Assembly: GCA_049322955.1 (NCBI GenBank)
Contig: JBMOPU010000033.1
Location: 194,784-247,521, forward strand
Direction of reading: 5' to 3'
Source of the DNA: Patescibacteria group bacterium
Lineage (GTDB): Bacteria; Patescibacteriota; Microgenomatia; UBA10105; UBA927
DNA: 52,738 bases
Below the pieces are notes generated by a model. That model worked only from the letters and a program-made list of their open reading frames with translations, did not search any database and was not told where the DNA came from. Of this stretch, positions 2,335 to 49,969 are shown one piece after another. The first letter of the stretch is position 1. Each line of letters starts with the position of its first letter. Made by a program: the position numbers and the translations under genes.

Positions 2335-3162
2335 ATGATGCACATGTCCGCATCAGTGAATGATATCGGGTCATTTCGGCGTATGATTTTTGCGTGGTGG
2401 AAAACACATCGAAGAGATCTGCCGTGGCGACATACACGGGATCCGTATAAAATTCTTGTTTCGGAAGTGATGTTACAACAGACCCAAGTATCGCGGGTTC
2501 TCCCGAAATATGATGAATTTCTTGGCGAATTTCCTACGGTTCATGCGCTTGCAAAGGCAACACCCGCACACGTACTCAGAGCATGGCGGGGGATGGGATA
2601 TAACCGTCGAGCATTGTACCTCAAAAAAACGGCGGAAGCCGTTGTCTCCGAATATCACGGGATATTTCCGGATAGCGAGTCACAACTCATGAAACTGCCG
2701 GGATTGGGTAAATATACAGCTCGAGCAATTATGGTATTCGCTTTTGAAAAGGATGTCGGGATGGTGGATACCAATATACGACATATTATTACTCACTTTC
2801 TTTATAAAGGGTTGCCGCAGAAGGAAAAAATTATTGAAGCTACCGCGGATCAAATTGTGCCGAAGGGAAAATCCTGGGAATGGCATCAGGCGCTTATGGA
2901 TTACGGCGCTCTTGCCATGCAAAGCGAAAAGAAATCCATGAAACTTGTCAAAAAACAGACTTCATTTAAGGATTCTAACCGTTTTTATCGGGGAAGAATC
3001 GTTGACATGTTACGCTCGGGTAAGACGGGGAGAACACATCTTCTTCTGGATCTTACAAAAAAATACGGGAAGGATAAAAAATTTATCGAAGGGATTATCT
3101 CCGGACTTATCCGTGACGGGCTCGTTGTCGTGCAAGGCACGTCACTTTCTCTTCCGACGTAA
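2335..3162 (+). CDS. HhH-GPD adenine DNA glycosylase (MutY-like), cysteine-free
   Basis: RDLPWR...DPYKILVSEVMLQQTQV, LPGLGKYTARAI (HhH) and VDTNIRHI (catalytic Asp) match the MutY/Nth family. No Fe-S Cys motif and no NUDIX-like C-terminal domain. Confidence 0.8.
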   Translation: MMHMSASVNDIGSFRRMIFAWWKTHRRDLPWRHTRDPYKILVSEVMLQQTQVSRVLPKYDEFLGEFPTVHALAKATPAHVLRAWRGMGYNRRALYLKKTAEAVVSEYHGIFPDSESQLMKLPGLGKYTARAIMVFAFEKDVGMVDTNIRHIITHFLYKGLPQKEKIIEATADQIVPKGKSWEWHQALMDYGALAMQSEKKSMKLVKKQTSFKDSNRFYRGRIVDMLRSGKTGRTHLLLDLTKKYGKDKKFIEGIISGLIRDGLVVVQGTSLSLPT

Positions 3163-13592: not shown

Positions 13593-14258
13593 ATGAAAGA
13601 TATACGAATTCATCCGAGTTGGAAAAAAGCGTTACGCGAAGAGTTTGAAAAGCCGTACTGGCAATCCCTTACCGATAACGTAAGGGAGCAGTATCGGACT
13701 TCGGTCGTGTATCCGCCGGGTCCGTATATTTTTCGGGCTTTTGACGTATGTCCCTTGGATAGGGTGAAAGTCGTTATCATCGGACAGGACCCGTATCACG
13801 GTGTCAAACAGGCAAACGGGTTGTCGTTTTCGGTGAATACGGGTTTGCCCCTTCCGCCGTCACTTAAAAATATTTATAAGGAAATTCAAAACGATCTCGG
13901 CATTACTCCTCTTGCGGATGGTGACCTGATACGGTGGGGGAAACAGGGAGTACTGCTGTTAAATAGCGTGCTTACTGTGCTTGCCGGAAAGCCCGGTTCC
14001 CATGCGGGTATCGGATGGGAAACATTTACCGATGCGGTCATCCGCGCCGTCAATACAGAGAGGAAGCATGTGGTCTATATGCTTTGGGGAAAATACGCGC
14101 AGAACAAAGGTGCGATGATCGATACCGCGGAGAATTTAGTGCTTACGTCCGCGCATCCGTCGCCCTACTCGGTATCGATGTTTTATGGGCACCATCACTT
14201 CAGCCGTTGCAACACCTACCTTTCGGAGCACGGCATGGACCCCATCGACTGGCGGTAA
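13593..14258 (+). CDS. ung: uracil-DNA glycosylase (family 1)
   Basis: GQDPYHG and SAHPSPYS motifs. ATG at 13593 preceded by AGGGGGA. The upstream GTG extension overlaps mutS. Confidence 0.93.
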   Translation: MKDIRIHPSWKKALREEFEKPYWQSLTDNVREQYRTSVVYPPGPYIFRAFDVCPLDRVKVVIIGQDPYHGVKQANGLSFSVNTGLPLPPSLKNIYKEIQNDLGITPLADGDLIRWGKQGVLLLNSVLTVLAGKPGSHAGIGWETFTDAVIRAVNTERKHVVYMLWGKYAQNKGAMIDTAENLVLTSAHPSPYSVSMFYGHHHFSRCNTYLSEHGMDPIDWR

Positions 14259-14305
14259 GCGTCATCCCGCTTATCCCCCGAGTGAAAAATAACGCGCTTT
14301 TGCGG

Positions 14306-14311
14306 TATAAT
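14306..14311 (+). promoter_or_regulatory. candidate -10 box (TATAAT) for tRNA-Gln
   Basis: A perfect TATAAT ends 9 nt before tRNA position 1. No convincing -35. Confidence 0.35.
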
Positions 14312-14320
14312 ACCTACACT

Positions 14321-14391
14321 TGCGGGATCGTATAACGGTAGTACGCATCCCTCTGGAGGATGTTATCTTGGTTCGAATCCAAGTCCCGCAG
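14321..14391 (+). tRNA. tRNA-Gln (anticodon CTG)
   Basis: Manual cloverleaf: acceptor TGCGGGA/TCCCGCA (U1-A72 as in bacterial tRNA-Gln); D stem GTAT/GTAC; anticodon stem CATCC/GGATG with loop CT-CTG-GA; T arm CTTGG-TTCGAAT-CCAAG; discriminator G. No encoded CCA. Confidence 0.9.
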
Positions 14392-14393
14392 CA
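14377..14393 (+). repeat. direct repeat copy 1 (tRNA-Gln T-loop/acceptor 3' end, ATCCAAGTCCCGCAGCA)
   Basis: Identical 17-mer at 14557-14573. 13-nt core repeated at 15320-15332. Confidence 0.9.
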
Positions 14394-14431
14394 TATACAA
14401 AAATTGCCCTGAAAAGGCATTTTTTGTATAT
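14393..14431. terminator. A-tract/T-tract palindrome (bidirectional terminator-like) directly after tRNA-Gln
   Basis: ATATACAAAAATTGCC-ctgaaaa-GGCATTTTTTGTATAT. 16-bp arms with one mismatch. Confidence 0.55.
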
Positions 14432-14556
14432 ACAGAGATTTAGGATGAGAACCAACTGCCAACAGGCGTATGGTTCGGGAGTATGAAGCATTATTGAAAC
14501 AACGATTTCAATAATAGCGAAATACTCATGAAACCCCGCTTTGCGGGGTGAACATC

Positions 14557-14573
14557 ATCCAAGTCCCGCAGCA
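14557..14573 (+). repeat. direct repeat copy 2 (exact 17-nt copy of tRNA-Gln 3' end)
   Basis: ATCCAAGTCCCGCAGCA is identical to 14377-14393. Confidence 0.9.
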
Positions 14574-14596
14574 AAATTGAGATATACTACCAATAT

Positions 14597-15112
14597 ATGA
14601 ATAAAACGCACATCCATATTATTAAAACTGGCGGAACAATAGAATTTAAGGATCCAGGATACGAAAACGTTAATACACAGATGATGAAACTTGATACCTC
14701 TATAGATACGTACCTCAAAAATATGGTGAAGCCACACTTTGCCTACACCATTGAATCGGTTTGTGAAAAAGATAGTCGAGATGTTACTGACGAAGACCGC
14801 AATAAACTTATCAATGCAATCGAGCATACTTCTCACTCAAATATTGTTATTACCCACGGTACTTATACCATGGGACAAACCGCCAAATACTTAAATAAAC
14901 ATTTTATTGGCAAAGACTTAAAGAAAAAAATTATCCTGACAGGATCTATGATCCCTGTTGTTGGATTCTCTATGTCAGATGCAGCATTTAATCTTGGCTA
15001 CTGCATGGCATCATTCGATCATTTAAAACCAGGAGTCTATATAAGTATGAATGGTGGAATATTCAAGCCTAATGAGGTAGAAAAAAACTCAGAGCTACTC
15101 AGATTTGAATAA
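14597..15112 (+). CDS. asparaginase N-terminal-domain-only protein
   Basis: 171 aa. IIKTGGTIEF (catalytic Thr motif), VITHGTYTM (HGTDT-like) and ILTGSMIP. Visibly more AT-rich than its neighbours. TATACT ends 8 nt upstream of the ATG. Confidence 0.7.
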   Translation: MNKTHIHIIKTGGTIEFKDPGYENVNTQMMKLDTSIDTYLKNMVKPHFAYTIESVCEKDSRDVTDEDRNKLINAIEHTSHSNIVITHGTYTMGQTAKYLNKHFIGKDLKKKIILTGSMIPVVGFSMSDAAFNLGYCMASFDHLKPGVYISMNGGIFKPNEVEKNSELLRFE

Positions 15113-15151
15113 GCTATAACGACCGTATGGTCCGTGACCGGCACGCTCAGC

Positions 15152-15190
15152 ATATACAAAAATTGCCCTGAACGGGCATTTTTTGTATAT
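15152..15190. terminator. second copy of the A-tract/T-tract palindrome
   Basis: Same arms as 14393-14431, with the loop changed to ctgaacg. Lies 40 nt after the stop of the asparaginase-like ORF. Confidence 0.55.
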
Positions 15191-15319
15191 ACAGAGATTT
15201 AGGATGAGAACCAACTGCCAGCAGGCGTATGGTTCGGGATTGAGGAGCCGTTATCGCAACAACGATTGCGATAACAAGCGGATCAGTCATGGAGTCCCGC
15301 CCTGGCGGGACGAATATCT

Positions 15320-15332
15320 TCCAAGTCCCGCA
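15320..15332 (+). repeat. direct repeat copy 3 (13-nt core of tRNA-Gln 3' end)
   Basis: TCCAAGTCCCGCA is identical to 14378-14390. Flanks diverge (TT...ACA). Confidence 0.85.
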
Positions 15333-15348
15333 ACAAACAAGCGTGTCT

Positions 15349-15855
15349 TTATATCTTCCTGCTATCGTACGCCCAGTGGAGGAGTGCCTGTCGCTGTCGG
15401 GGTCGGCAGGATTCATCATACGGCATACAATATTTTTTGATCTGACTCACATGCCGTCGAATGGCGAGCCATCGTTTGATTTGCCGTTCGTCGTCCTCAT
15501 GGCGTCTTCCCCGATAGTAACGGCAATACCATTGGAACCACCCGCGGGGATCGTCGGGATGTATCCAGTGCTTTCGTATCCATTCGGTAAGCGATTGACT
15601 TGCCGATACGCCGAAATAATTGATTGATGGGTCTGACTTTTCCGGGGAAAGTTTGGCTTTTGCAAACCAGTTCTTGGGAAATTCAGCGATGCAGTCGGTC
15701 ATATATTTCCCCCCGAACACGCCCATCTCAAGCATTTGTTTCGGGGTAAGGTCCGGAGTAAATCGGGGATCAAAGTTTTTCCCTTCCGGTTCGGTGAGAA
15801 CATACCGATAATTCCTCTGCATTTTATCGTTAACGACAATGGTCTTAGGGTGCAT
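15349..15855 (-). CDS. conserved hypothetical protein
   Basis: Long ORF with non-repetitive composition ([11 protein letters not shown]...[28 protein letters not shown]). Internal ATG at 15855 chosen to limit overlap with the upstream gene. Family not recognised. Confidence 0.55.
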
Positions 15856-23486: not shown

Positions 23487-23752
23487 AGATATCGTTTGAT
23501 GCTTGGGTCATTTTCGGATTTTTAGCACAGTTCGTTTTTTTTCTCCGGTTCGCCGTACAGTGGTGGGCATCGGAAAAAGAAAAAAAGAGTGTCGTGCCGC
23601 TCAGTTTTTGGTATCTGAGTATTGTCGGGTCTGTGATGATACTTATCTATGCGATACGTCGGGAAGATATTGTGTTTATCACCGCGCAGTTTTTGGCGCT
23701 TATTATCTATATACGCAATATCATGTTGCACAAACAGAATACACAGATATAA
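23483..23752 (+). CDS. lipid-A-disaccharide synthase N-terminal (LAB_N) domain membrane protein
   Basis: FGFLAQFVFFLRFAVQWWASEK...FWYLSIVGS. ATGA overlap with the GT2 gene. Confidence 0.75.
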   Translation: MKISFDAWVIFGFLAQFVFFLRFAVQWWASEKEKKSVVPLSFWYLSIVGSVMILIYAIRREDIVFITAQFLALIIYIRNIMLHKQNTQI

Positions 23753-23780
23753 AAAACCGGCCCCTACAGAGCCGGTTTTT
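23752..23780. terminator. bidirectional terminator between convergent genes
   Basis: AAAAACCGGC-ccctacaga-GCCGGTTTTT. Confidence 0.65.
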
Positions 23781-23796
23781 ATATCGTATAAGTAGA

Positions 23797-30500: not shown

Positions 30501-30983
30501 ATGAGAACGGCAATTCCTTATAAAAAACCCGCACGCATTCCTTTTACCCGTGAAGGATATCAGGAGATTCTCAAACAACAGAAGGAGTTTCTTCATGACA
30601 GACCAGCCGCGGTCGAAAATCTGAAGAAAGCCAGGGAAATGGGTGACCTTTCGGAAAACGGTTATTACAAAGCCGCCCGACAACGCCTTTCTTTTATCGA
30701 CGCACAGCTTCGCAGACTGGATCGCTTGGTCAGGTTCGGGAGCGTCATTGATAAACCCGTGCTTACCGGGGTTATCGGATTCGGATCTACCGTTACGTTA
30801 TCGGGTGCCGCGATGCGGCGTACGTTCACGATCGTCGGAGGATATGAGTCCAATCCCGCGGAGAACTCCATATCCCATATTTCCCCTCTGGGTAAAGCCC
30901 TTATGGGACACAAGGCAGGTGATAGGATTGCGCTTGATGCCCCGAAAGGGAGGGTAGAATATACGATCGAGTCGGTGACCTGA
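30501..30983 (+). CDS. GreA/GreB family elongation factor (divergent paralog)
   Basis: GDLSENGYYKAARQ coiled-coil tip motif and a C-terminal globular domain (ISHISPLGKALMGHKAGD). Confidence 0.8.
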   Translation: MRTAIPYKKPARIPFTREGYQEILKQQKEFLHDRPAAVENLKKAREMGDLSENGYYKAARQRLSFIDAQLRRLDRLVRFGSVIDKPVLTGVIGFGSTVTLSGAAMRRTFTIVGGYESNPAENSISHISPLGKALMGHKAGDRIALDAPKGRVEYTIESVT

Positions 30984-44948: not shown

Positions 44949-45022
44949 GCCCCGTTCGTCTAGCGGCCTAGGACGGTTCCTTCTCAAGGAACAAATCGCC
45001 GGTTCGAATCCGGCACGGGGTA
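44949..45022 (+). tRNA. tRNA-Glu (anticodon CTC)
   Basis: Manual cloverleaf: acceptor GCCCCGT/ACGGGGT (G1-U72 wobble); D arm GTCT-AGCGGCCTA-GGAC; anticodon stem GTTCC/GGAAC with loop TT-CTC-AA; T arm GCCGG-TTCGAAT-CCGGC; discriminator A. Confidence 0.85.
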
Positions 45023-45024
45023 CA

Positions 45025-45067
45025 TGCATAAAAAAAAGTCCCGCTTTGGCGGGATTTTTTTTATGCA
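45025..45067. terminator. long A-tract/T-tract palindrome (bidirectional terminator) directly after tRNA-Glu
   Basis: TGCATAAAAAAAAGTCCCGC-tttg-GCGGGATTTTTTTTATGCA. Confidence 0.75.
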
Positions 45068-45096
45068 CATATGTCCTGTGCTGAATTATCGAATCA

Positions 45097-45192
45097 GTTC
45101 CCGGTTCGCAATCCAGCAGTAGATAATTCGATTCGTAGAGAATTATTGTACTGCTGGTGAGTGCAGTGTGGTCACTGCAATCCGGCACGGGA
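45097..45192 (+). repeat. tRNA-Glu-associated structured module, copy G2, ending in a 13-nt copy of the tRNA-Glu 3' end
   Basis: CCGGTTCGCAATCC, then CCAGCAGTA/TACTGCTGG enclosing ATAATTC/GAATTAT, then GCAGTG-tggt-CACTGC, then AATCCGGCACGGG (identical to 45007-45019). Confidence 0.7.
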
Positions 45193-45235
45193 TGCATGTT
45201 AAAAATCCCGCACAAACGCGATAGAATATCATTGT

Positions 45236-45718
45236 ATGAATTCATATGGTCACGAATTTGAACATATGGGAACTCGTCGGGAACAACTATTGTCCCGATT
45301 ATCACATTCACTGAATAAATACGGTGTCGCCCAAAATTTGGAAGCGAAAGAACTTTGTTTCGATAACTATCGGCGCTCACTTCAATTCTTACGTAAAAAA
45401 CTCACCTCGTCCGGATTACGTATAAGAGAGTGGAATTTGTTTGGTAGCATGGCGCCTGTTCTCAGGCTTCCGTTCTTACAATCTATATTGTTACCGGTAT
45501 CGAAAGCCCGCTTGGGAATTTACCCGCTCGAATATACACTCGAGGATGCACTCGCAACCGTCACCTCCGGTCATAACGCAAGAAATTTACCTTCTGATAT
45601 TGATCTCATTTTAGATGCAGACAATGGCAATATTTCACCAAGAGATCAATCGTATATCAAATATTTCGCTCGCAAAAGTACGTTTGATGAATACGGAGTG
45701 TTTGTACAGTTTAAGTAG
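45236..45718 (+). CDS. hypothetical protein (weak, split nucleotidyltransferase-like motifs)
   Basis: 160-aa ORF, AT-rich by eye. FGS ... SDIDLILD resembles the minimal NTase G[GS]...DxD pattern, but with unusually long spacing. Confidence 0.45.
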   Translation: MNSYGHEFEHMGTRREQLLSRLSHSLNKYGVAQNLEAKELCFDNYRRSLQFLRKKLTSSGLRIREWNLFGSMAPVLRLPFLQSILLPVSKARLGIYPLEYTLEDALATVTSGHNARNLPSDIDLILDADNGNISPRDQSYIKYFARKSTFDEYGVFVQFK

Positions 45719-45804
45719 CATGCAAATTCTTCCGATTCTTCTTATTTTGTCTCAATACCATTACAAGGAAAAGATCTCTCTTCAGCCCTATAGTACGCTC
45801 TCCG

Positions 45805-49507: not shown

Positions 49508-49969
49508 ATGAACAACAACCATATTGTCGTTACCAAAGAAGGATTAGACACGCTCAAAGCGGAATATGACGAACTGATAAATGTCAAGCGCCCCGCGGCT
49601 GTCACCCGGCTTGCCAATGCCCGTGAACAGGGTGATTTGTCTGAAAATAGCGAATATACCGATGCCAAACAAAATTTGGCATTCATTGACGGCAGAATCG
49701 CCGAACTCGAAATCGTGCTTCACGACGTACAGGTCGTCACCACCCACACCAAAGGTCACGTGGACGTGGGATGCAAAGTCACGCTTCATATAAACGGCAA
49801 AAAAGAAGTATTCACCGTCGTCGGAGAATGGGAGGCGGATCCGTCAAGCAAGAAGATCTCCCACGAATCGCCGCTTGGCAAGGCACTCCTTGGCAAGAAG
49901 GTAGGCGAGCAGGTTGAAGTGGAAGCGCCGGCGGGCAAGATCCACTACAAGGTTTTACATATAGAGTAA
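49508..49969 (+). CDS. greA: transcription elongation factor GreA
   Basis: 153 aa. GDLSENSEYTDAKQ tip, ISHESPLGKALLGKKVGE. Confidence 0.92.
   Translation: MNNNHIVVTKEGLDTLKAEYDELINVKRPAAVTRLANAREQGDLSENSEYTDAKQNLAFIDGRIAELEIVLHDVQVVTTHTKGHVDVGCKVTLHINGKKEVFTVVGEWEADPSSKKISHESPLGKALLGKKVGEQVEVEAPAGKIHYKVLHIE

Follow-up and report, generated by a model that had tools for sequence, protein, structure and literature searches.

A folded, non-coding module bounded by tRNA-end repeats at tRNA-Gln genes of Patescibacteria, and its possible role in an insertion array without an integrase

Precedents for insertion at tRNA genes include cis-mobilizable elements (CIMEs) with their tandem accretion at tRNA sites (PMC5704250), and tRNA-seeded islands with partial-tRNA repeats (10.1101/2020.12.28.424599). 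For recombination that works through a folded strand, the precedents are the forked hairpin of CTX-phi and the single-strand recombination of integrons (PMC3089051). Here we describe a module at the 3' end of a tRNA-Gln gene from a Patescibacteria group bacterium (GenBank assembly GCA_049322955.1, contig JBMOPU010000033.1, positions 194,784 to 247,521 of the forward strand; this whole stretch of 52,738 nucleotides is "the window"). The module is about 180 nt long, non-coding, conserved, and folded. It lies at tRNA-Gln 3' ends and is bounded by repeats of the tRNA end, and strains differ by whole units. We tentatively favour the view that it serves in recombination, as the end module of cassettes in an insertion array that is anchored at tRNA genes and lacks its own integrase.

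We compared this locus to the described systems. In CIMEs with tandem accretion, in tycheposon islands, and in the ssrA islands of Dehalococcoides, insertions occur at the 3' end of a tRNA and the units are bounded by a partial copy of that tRNA (PMC5704250; 10.1101/2020.12.28.424599; PMC3146451), as they are here. As in those islands, newer units adjoin the tRNA and older, decayed ones lie outward, the units have no integrase of their own, and strains differ unit by unit. When we checked for features of CIMEs, we found direct repeats of the tRNA end, a polymorphism bounded by those repeats, and no integrase or transfer genes inside the unit. Unlike those islands, the units are tiny (a 181-nt non-coding module and single-gene cassettes of 579-589 nt), and neither an integrase nor the remnant of one is present in the loci seen here. 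(Tycheposons share the partial-tRNA flanks, but their hallmark genes, for a tyrosine recombinase and for replication, were not found here.) Also unlike in CIMEs and tycheposons, the repeat is embedded in a conserved, folded module with covarying helices. We know of no description, from general knowledge or from literature searches, of a covarying fold that contains the target copy in a tRNA island.

Integron cassettes with their attC sites, and clusters of attC sites lacking integrases (CALINs), resemble this locus in other ways. The cargo is a single, co-oriented open reading frame (ORF) of about 0.6 kb, and the site is conserved in structure over sequence. As in attC, one strand folds better than the other, and inverted terminal segments are predicted to pair into a stem that would bear the crossover. 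Unlike attC, the module has no RYYYAAC/GTTRRRY boxes and forms a four-way junction instead of a single bulged hairpin. Unlike in integrons, the site copies the 3' end of a tRNA, and a tRNA instead of attI anchors the array; no IntI is seen, and each cargo gene appears to have a -10 element of its own. We found neither IntI nor attI in the 52-kb window, but because integrase-less arrays (CALINs) exist, a missing IntI does not by itself exclude the logic of attC.

The attP(+) site of CTX-phi may be similar, in that two inverted, target-like sequences, about 90-115 nt apart, are predicted here to anneal within one strand into an imperfect duplex copy of the target, as they do there (PMC3089051). 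Neither element has its own integrase. Unlike in CTX-phi, where the target is dif and the host's XerCD acts, the element here is aimed at a tRNA 3' end; it has no genes of filamentous phages, and no source of single-stranded DNA is known for it.

Two tRNA-bounded modules at tRNA-Gln

An earlier model-made reading, which had only the letters of the window and a list of its ORFs (the sequence-only reading), reported two copies of a module of roughly 185 nt, E1 at 14389-14573 and E2 at 15148-15335. Both copies are there. It counted three differences within the first 92 nt, and we find the same three (at 14414, 14415, and 14462; 96.7% identity); the second halves are 72.4% identical. It also assigned the differences within the palindrome to a loop, which does not hold for 14415 (A versus G). 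This is a stem-closing position, with C.A in E1 and C-G in E2.

That reading did not see the context: an adjoining tRNA-Gln, repeats of the tRNA 3' end that bound both copies, a low-GC gene between the copies, and a pseudo-tRNA-end (O') behind that gene. Given these features, the pair is not simply a duplicated RNA gene. E1 and E2 are two alleles of one cassette-end module, placed in tandem through insertion.

E1 begins inside the 3' end of tRNA-Gln(CTG), and the terminator of the module takes the place of the tRNA's own downstream sequence. The 3' end of the tRNA (ATCCAAGTCCCGCAGCA, 14377-14393) is the sequence that is repeated where each module ends (Table 1). A 12-mer from it (CCAAGTCCCGCA) occurs exactly at 14379, at 14559 (the end of E1), and at 15321 (the end of E2), or three matches versus 0.25 expected. 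In order, the array consists of the tRNA, the first module and its repeat, a one-gene cargo and O', the second module and its repeat, and the host flank. E1 meets the cargo cassette at 14573/14574 (junction J2), and all four junctions fit the pattern ...C[A/T]GC[A/G].

The module itself is not protein coding: three 1-nt indels between E1 and E2 break the frame, and there are stops in most frames. (We rejected an 85-aa ORF over E2 as evidence of coding; it has no counterpart in E1.) The only ORF inside the array is the 171-aa asparaginase-domain gene. The array is flanked by ordinary host genes, with MutL, MutS, and UDG on the left and the 168-aa gene, DUF1295, and DUF2177 on the right. A promoter scan found a promoter-like GTGAAA-N18-TATAAT upstream of tRNA-Gln, at 14282-14311.

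The sequence-only reading took the palindrome at the start of each module to be a terminator, and a scan for intrinsic terminators agrees. The core in E2 (15164-15178) was called on both strands. The core in E1 (14405-14419) was called on the minus strand only, and its plus-strand arm is read from the consensus and single folds and from the T-run. (The scan called five sites, versus 1.3 expected.) Another palindrome in the style of the module terminator, with an A-run, a GC-stem, and a T-run (ATATAAAAAACCGGC...GCCGGTTTTTATAT), lies at 23750-23790 and was weakly picked up by our covariance model. This is probably one of the host's ordinary bidirectional terminators.

Fold and covariation of the module

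We computed a consensus fold with RNAalifold from six distinct variants of the Gln module: E1, E2, and the modules of L012, L016, L019, and L022. (L numbers denote loci that we fetched for comparison.) The six Gln variants are from one lineage, and a seventh sequence, a module at tRNA-Glu that is described below, is effectively a sample of one. The consensus has 64 pairs in eight helices, with 96.3% of the cells paired and double changes at 15 pairs. None of 500 column shuffles reached the observed pairing values, and in controls with slid partners, 29-43% of cells were paired, with 0-2 double changes. Both window copies are also more stable than shuffled sequences (z = -9.0 for E1 and -6.5 for E2; none of 200 shuffles was as stable).

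The helices are the terminator palindrome (with two covarying pairs), P2 with a tip that is dispensable, the outer and inner helices of P3, a short CAT/ATG helix, P4, and a long-range helix, P1. The hairpins P2, P3, and P4 make up a four-way junction that P1 closes. The inner stem of P3 exists in three allelic versions, each of them perfectly paired, and six of its pairs show double changes. P4 exists in four different, perfect versions, with double changes at five of seven pairs and a loop of varying length. While these stems vary, the loop CAACGA and the junction strands CGGGA, TCATGRA, and GAAYATC are invariant. All of the helices that the sequence-only reading had drawn are present, both in E1 and at the counterpart positions in E2, and its claim that they are kept across sharp sequence divergence stands: the stems change in a compensatory way, and the loops and junction strands are constant.

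P1 is new. It joins 14433-14445, right after the terminator, to 14558-14568, within the tRNA-end repeat, and it is part of the minimum-energy fold of all seven sequences (the six Gln variants and the Glu module). In both the Gln and Glu families, this type of helix stops 5 nt before the junction. Among the Gln variants there are two compensatory events in P1, from A-T to G-C in L022 and from G-C to A-T in L012. Tested at its fixed position against random genomic segments, P1 has p = 0.05 in E1, 0.2 in E2, 0.01 in L012, 0.015 in L016, 0.005 in L019, and 0.0005 in L022. (We also considered pairing of the tRNA-end repeat with the 3' arm of the GC hairpin instead, and rejected it; it is not conserved in L019 or L012.)

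In all seven sequences the plus strand folds better than the minus strand, by 1.8-11.4 kcal/mol, but G.U-type and A.C-type cells both occur on the plus strand, so the strand call is only moderate.

Related loci, cargo, and a second module at tRNA-Glu

We then compared the window to related loci. In two contigs from the same species (L001 and L002), the arrangement is as in the window. In close relatives, with 90% or more identity in the 168-aa protein, only about 320-350 nt separate UDG from the 168-aa gene. In L012, L014, L015, L016, and L017, this gap holds the tRNA and one module of a second type (type 2), with no ORF and no cargo. Relative to L016 and L012, the window has 759 extra bp (14394-15152), which is a presence/absence polymorphism bounded by repeats.

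The second half of E2 is 99.0% identical to L016. Its first half is only 60% identical to L016 but 96.7% identical to E1. In other words, E2 has a first half of the E1/L019 type (type 1) and a type-2 second half. Because the second half of E2 is shared with the single-module relatives, it is the resident allele, and 14394-15152 is an insertion at the tRNA end. These 759 bp (a type-1 module, its repeat, the cargo, and O') precede the type-2 module that was already resident. That the first halves of E1 and E2 are nearly identical is due to a mosaic that arose by recombination or gene conversion between the tandem copies, with the breakpoint at the invariant TGGTTCGGGA, and is not a sign of stronger functional constraint.

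L019 and L020, from a more distant relative whose neighbour protein is 85% identical, have one type-1 module and a remnant of about 35 nt from the 3' end of a type-2 module. In L019, at 2796-2860 (minus strand), the type-1 module is followed by a degenerate stretch (CGACGAACATCTTCCCAATCCCATAG) that copies the final ~35 nt of a type-2 module. L019 resembles what a deletion within a window-like array would leave, and its remnant looks like the footprint of an earlier array with two modules. Elsewhere, L021 has the 168-aa gene without a module, and L011 has a degenerate tRNA-end repeat just 3' of its tRNA. Homologues of neighbouring genes (P0144 in L021; P0267 in L031 and L032) are not adjoined by tRNA-Gln and gave no extra variants.

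The sequence-only reading had proposed searching with a covariance model. Ours (R1), run on the window and the fetched loci, found one copy at each related tRNA-Gln locus, but no copy in the window beyond E1 and E2. This is not the pattern of a miniature inverted-repeat transposable element or other dispersed repeat. A scan of representative genomes for GGCGTATGGTTCGGGA-N-CAACGA gave one chance hit, in a metagenome-assembled genome of Rhodospirillaceae, with no tRNA and no module. Four scans of viral contigs (for two patterns from the module, for the O' pattern, and for the cargo protein) were negative, and the module had no blastn match among phages and plasmids. A scan of metagenomes yielded a single real locus, L022, from Hainich groundwater. 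The modules at tRNA-Gln come from one lineage, which is probably Patescibacteria.

In L022, the tRNA-Gln is a different isoacceptor, with anticodon TTG. This tRNA is about 81% identical to that of the window (14 differences over 73 aligned positions), and the flanks differ. Its type-1 module is 81-88% identical to E1, and the repeat at the end of the module matches L022's own tRNA (with a C where the window has a T). The cargo is a 164-aa ORF that is unrelated to the window's cargo; it is followed by O' and then by unrelated sequence. In the alignment, conservation between the two loci is limited to the tRNA, the module, and O'. This comparison defines a unit of module, repeat, one cargo gene, and O', which lies at two tRNA-Gln isoacceptor genes and whose cargo differs.

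O' has the 24-nt segment layout of the tRNA end (GGTTCGAATCCAAGTCCCGCAGCA), yet it is part of no tRNA. This 24-mer (GGTCCGTGACCGNCNCGCTCAGCA; 15129-15152 in the window and L022:1946-1969, minus strand) is conserved at 22 of 24 positions behind the two unrelated cargo genes.

As for the window's cargo, the relatives of its protein are mostly from Patescibacteria, and the cassette is not present in L012, L016, or L019. The cargo is a horizontally acquired single-gene cassette. The window's two cargo ORFs (the second is at tRNA-Glu) are each preceded by a -10-like element, TATACT at 14583-14588 and TAGAAT at 45222-45227, that ends 8 nt before the ATG, without a Shine-Dalgarno sequence. This suggests that both are leaderless mRNAs with promoters borne by the cassettes. 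Nine proteins, from the cargo or from neighbouring genes, had no hits in searches of PHROGs and PADLOC.

The cargo protein's two closest homologues (74-75% identity; on the low-GC contigs L010 and L011) are also encoded downstream of a tRNA-Gln 3' end. In both, small genes lie between the tRNA end and the asparaginase-like gene, and there is no module. A 171-aa protein with just the N-domain of asparaginase is thus found downstream of a tRNA-Gln 3' end in three genomic backgrounds, with differing small genes in between (L010:1-2130; L011:1-1326; 14597-15112 in the window). It may be a shared cargo of islands, or it may have a functional link to tRNA-Gln. (The archaeal GatD is a homologue of asparaginase.) In L010, the end of the asparaginase-like ORF and the next bases (2040-2075; GGTTTGAATAGCCTGCAGATAA) loosely resemble the 3' end of that contig's tRNA-Gln. 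This may be the right boundary of the L010 island, since it coincides with a switch from low to higher GC content.

The window has one other tRNA gene, for tRNA-Glu(CTC), and it is followed by a module with the same architecture and an unrelated sequence (Table 1). This module ends with 14 nt that match the tRNA-Glu 3' end exactly (45178-45191), after which the window diverges (ATGCA); L024, from the same species, keeps 17 nt. The fold of the Glu module has an energy of -81.8 kcal/mol (z = -9.6), its plus strand is 11 kcal/mol more stable than its minus strand, and the position-specific test of pairing gives p = 0.008. A T-arm-like CCGGTTCGCAATCC lies inside the module. In L024, 22 other nucleotides take the place of 45192-45780, and the two sequences part where the repeat ends. 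In three further assemblies, the sequence breaks off precisely at the 3' end of tRNA-Glu, which suggests strain variation at this junction.

Table 1. Features of the arrays at tRNA-Gln and tRNA-Glu, in window coordinates
Feature	Position	Strand	Description
tRNA-Gln(CTG)	14321-14392	+	ARAGORN; Rfam tRNA, 58.6 bits
E1 palindrome	14393-14431		Directly after the tRNA; 15-16 bp, A-run / GC core / T-run; bidirectional intrinsic terminator
P1, 5' strand, CAGAGATTTAGGA	14433-14445	+	Complementary to tRNA-end repeat 14558-14568; RNAalifold
P2 hairpin	14449-14476	+	GAACCA...TGGTTC with GCC/GGC tip; tip deleted in L012 and L016; followed by invariant junction CGGGA
P3, outer helix and inner hairpin	14479-14527	+	Outer helix GAGTAT/ATACTC, 14479-84 / 14522-27; consensus fold
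P3, inner 10-bp hairpin, ATTATTGAAA-CAACGA-TTTCAATAAT	14490-14499 / 14506-14515, loop 14500-14505	+	Perfectly paired
P4 GC hairpin	14533-14549	+	ACCCCGC-TTT-GCGGGGT; core CCCCGC/GCGGGG at 14534-14548; consensus fold
Direct repeat O	14557-14573	+	Exact copy of tRNA-Gln 3' end, 17/17; 14558-14568 is the 3' strand of P1; last 5 nt, CAGCA, unpaired
Cargo cassette	14574-15152	+	35-39% GC, versus 48% for the whole window
Cargo ORF	14597-15112	+	171 aa, asparaginase N-domain; Pfam PF00710, E = 3e-24
O', pseudo-tRNA-end 24-mer, GGTCCGTGACCGGCACGCTCAGCA	15129-15152	+	16 nt past the cargo stop codon; runs straight into E2
E2	15148-15335	+	Palindrome 15152-15190; 5' strand of P1 15192-15204
E2 hairpins	Inner 15250-15259 / 15266-15275; GC 15294-15311	+	Parts of the consensus
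E2 direct repeat, TCCAAGTCCCGCAACA	15320-15335	+	Copy of the tRNA end, 15/16
Conserved host gene	15349-15855	-	168 aa, convergent; right flank of the array; in all relatives
tRNA-Glu(CTC)	44949-45023	+	Only other tRNA in the window; ARAGORN; Rfam
tRNA-Glu locus (tRNA plus module)	44949-45195	+	Sequence unrelated to the Gln module, same architecture
tRNA-Glu terminator palindrome	45026-45066	+	Perfect; follows the tRNA
tRNA-Glu three-hairpin domain	Closing helix 45071-45083 / 45178-45190	+	Predicted fold
Cargo segment after the Glu module	45192-45780	+	Polymorphic; ORF 45236-45718, 160 aa, no family match

Elsewhere in the window, there are two genes of the GreA/GreB family (30501-30983 and 49508-49969). 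Other genes of the host are for MutS/MutL, SUF, a pyruvate:ferredoxin oxidoreductase, and an ECF sigma factor, and the named homologues of UDG and of the 168-aa protein are mostly from Patescibacteria. Within this analysis, the host was assigned to Patescibacteria from named homologues at about 70% identity.

Explanations for the module

The sequence-only reading had offered two alternatives, a structured RNA or a structured arm for DNA recombination. What it observed is confirmed and is stronger than it reported. Its interpretation is supported in part: of the two alternatives, the recombination arm is the better fit to the context.

Under our tentatively favoured explanation, the tRNA-end-like sites would be recombination sites for a recombinase that is encoded elsewhere and supplied in trans. 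The array would have grown by tandem accretion of elements that lost their integrase, and the module would be the site-bearing arm of such an element. The plus-strand fold would place the target-identical repeat in a duplex stem and leave the crossover region in the unpaired tail of 5 nt, much as in the attC sites of integrons and the forked hairpin of CTX-phi attP(+). The compensatory substitutions would then result from selection for that fold. In favour of this explanation are the exact tRNA-end repeats at the boundaries, the presence or absence of units among close relatives, the L022 locus with its different cargo, the mosaic in E2, the well-paired and covarying fold with the repeat as part of it, the second family at tRNA-Glu, and the better folding of the plus strand. 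A more far-reaching version, which we consider unlikely, is an integron-like, tRNA-anchored system for gene capture in bacteria of the candidate phyla radiation. In that version, small cassettes of one gene each would be inserted beside the module, which would be a folded mimic of the target that can be retargeted (Gln or Glu stems on one scaffold), and a recombinase encoded elsewhere would act on the folded single strand.

Several points weigh against a recombination module. First, no recombinase was found in the 52-kb window (with Pfam) or in L010, L011, or L022, and no circular or excised form was observed. A double-stranded circle of 181 bp, for the module alone, is an unlikely intermediate. 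Second, we looked for attC core sites and rejected them: RYYYAAC is in neither locus, and the only GTTRRRY lies inside an ORF, at 14960. Third, P1 is at its weakest in the two window copies, with an A.C mismatch. If its partner is allowed to be anywhere in the module, the duplex is not significant (p = 0.05-0.2), so P1 rests on position, covariation, and recurrence and not on thermodynamics alone. Fourth, because the six Gln variants come from one lineage, the covariation counts are not phylogenetically independent. Fifth, the polymorphism at tRNA-Glu is a replacement (589 nt versus 22 nt) and not a clean insertion. Finally, a loop that does not vary (CAACGA), together with conserved junction strands, would be more usual in a structured RNA or in a motif that is recognised by a protein.

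This last point leads to the best of the rival explanations, which is nevertheless somewhat unlikely: the element carries a structured RNA, on the plus strand, with a cloverleaf-like four-way junction. Such an RNA could be a tRNA-like signal for processing or stability that sets the 5' end of the cargo mRNA (through RNase P or RNase Z, as for plant-mitochondrial t-elements), or it could be a small RNA or a tRNA decoy. The closing helix, of about 12 bp, has the length of a tRNA's stacked acceptor and T stems, and it uses a real tRNA 3' strand. Like t-elements and mimics of the mascRNA type, the module is predicted to combine this helix with cloverleaf topology, and it lies just upstream of an mRNA. 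Unlike tRNA-like mimics, it lacks T-loop and D-loop motifs and leaves the last two nucleotides of the acceptor unpaired. At tRNA-Glu, an unrelated sequence gives the same cloverleaf topology, and in every case the module is co-oriented with the tRNA and the cargo. Invariant loops and junction strands beside variable stems would also be expected of an RNA.

The strand signal is mixed. A functional plus-strand RNA is consistent with the greater stability of that strand in 7/7 sequences and with a G.U pair in P1 that is invariant in 6/6 Gln modules (the Glu module has two). But the plus strand also has A.C mismatches (about 8 cells, versus about 15 G.U cells).

Other points weigh against an RNA. 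A strong terminator lies directly upstream of the module, and there is no terminator after it. We found no conserved promoter: the TTGCCC-N17-TATATA that the sequence-only reading proposed is present, but within the terminator hairpin; it does not pass a scan for the consensus and is altered in L012 and L016. That reading recognised no named RNA family in the module, and the module matches none in Rfam. With Rfam 15 at the gathering threshold, only the two tRNAs pass, and no family is found even at E <= 10, where the hits over 14250-15400 (mir-9457, SpF41, and Gut-1) are sub-threshold, driven by the palindrome, and far below gathering. Nor is the module a tRNA or tRNA pseudogene according to ARAGORN or RF00005, which called only 14321-14392 and 44949-45023. 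An RNA by itself also does not explain why the polymorphisms map to the repeat junctions.

A quite improbable explanation is that the modules are passive debris, that is, decayed scars of attachment sites plus terminators, left by repeated integration and deletion at the tRNA. The hairpins would persist as terminators or through the correction of quasi-palindromes by intrastrand template switching, and not through any function of the fold. Tandem decay is the rule for tRNA islands, and degenerate copies of tRNA ends are indeed scattered about (the remnant in L019, the repeat in L011, and CCGGTTCGCAATCC in the Glu module). Also, the palindrome is a terminator of an ordinary host type, similar to the one near 23750-23790. 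But eight helices, including imperfect ones with G.U pairs, remain paired across 60-90% sequence divergence, and unpaired motifs are invariant; template switching would not conserve loops. The type-1 module is 81-88% conserved between the isoacceptor loci, which is no less than the tRNAs (~81%), even though the flanks and cargo are unrelated, and the four-part architecture recurs at tRNA-Glu.

Two other explanations are very improbable. The module could be a cis element of the host, namely the structured 3' untranslated region, on the minus strand, of the convergent 168-aa gene, ending at a shared bidirectional terminator. In the single-module relatives, the module does occupy the space from the stop codon of that gene to the terminator, which works on the minus strand as well, and from the layout we predict that the gene's transcript would cross the module antisense before reaching it; but the minus strand folds worse in 7/7 sequences, neither E1 nor the modules of L022 and tRNA-Glu are downstream of any minus-strand gene, and L021 has the 168-aa gene without a module. 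Or the hairpins could be palindromic operators of dimeric DNA-binding proteins, with symmetric changes due to co-evolution of the half-sites, as the inner stem of P3 might suggest (it resembles a 10-bp / 6-bp / 10-bp operator and changed symmetrically in three alleles); but the GC hairpin has changed at 5/7 positions and in loop length, P1 and the outer helix of P3 are imperfect and long-range, and no gene for a cognate regulator is linked to the module.

We also rejected two specific candidates. A hammerhead ribozyme does not fit (GGATGAG...CGGGAG versus CUGAUGA...GAAA, and no Rfam hit). A primer-binding site of the retroviral type does not fit either: the complementary stretch spans just 11-13 nucleotides in the interior of the tRNA 3' region, and without the terminal nucleotides, the tRNA could not prime from it.

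The means by which Patescibacteria exchange genes are poorly known. If the module does act in recombination, it would be part of a route for cassette capture in these bacteria. If its fold is needed for recombination, it would be the third folded-strand mimic of a target in mobile DNA, after attC and CTX-phi, and the first that is aimed at tRNA genes. If the module is instead an RNA, it would represent a new class of tRNA-mimicking RNAs that travel with mobile cassettes. Either way, the locus provides a signature that can be searched for: a tRNA, a terminator, a complement of the tRNA end, three hairpins, and a repeat of the tRNA end. This signature would serve for finding small, integrase-less islands that island finders miss.

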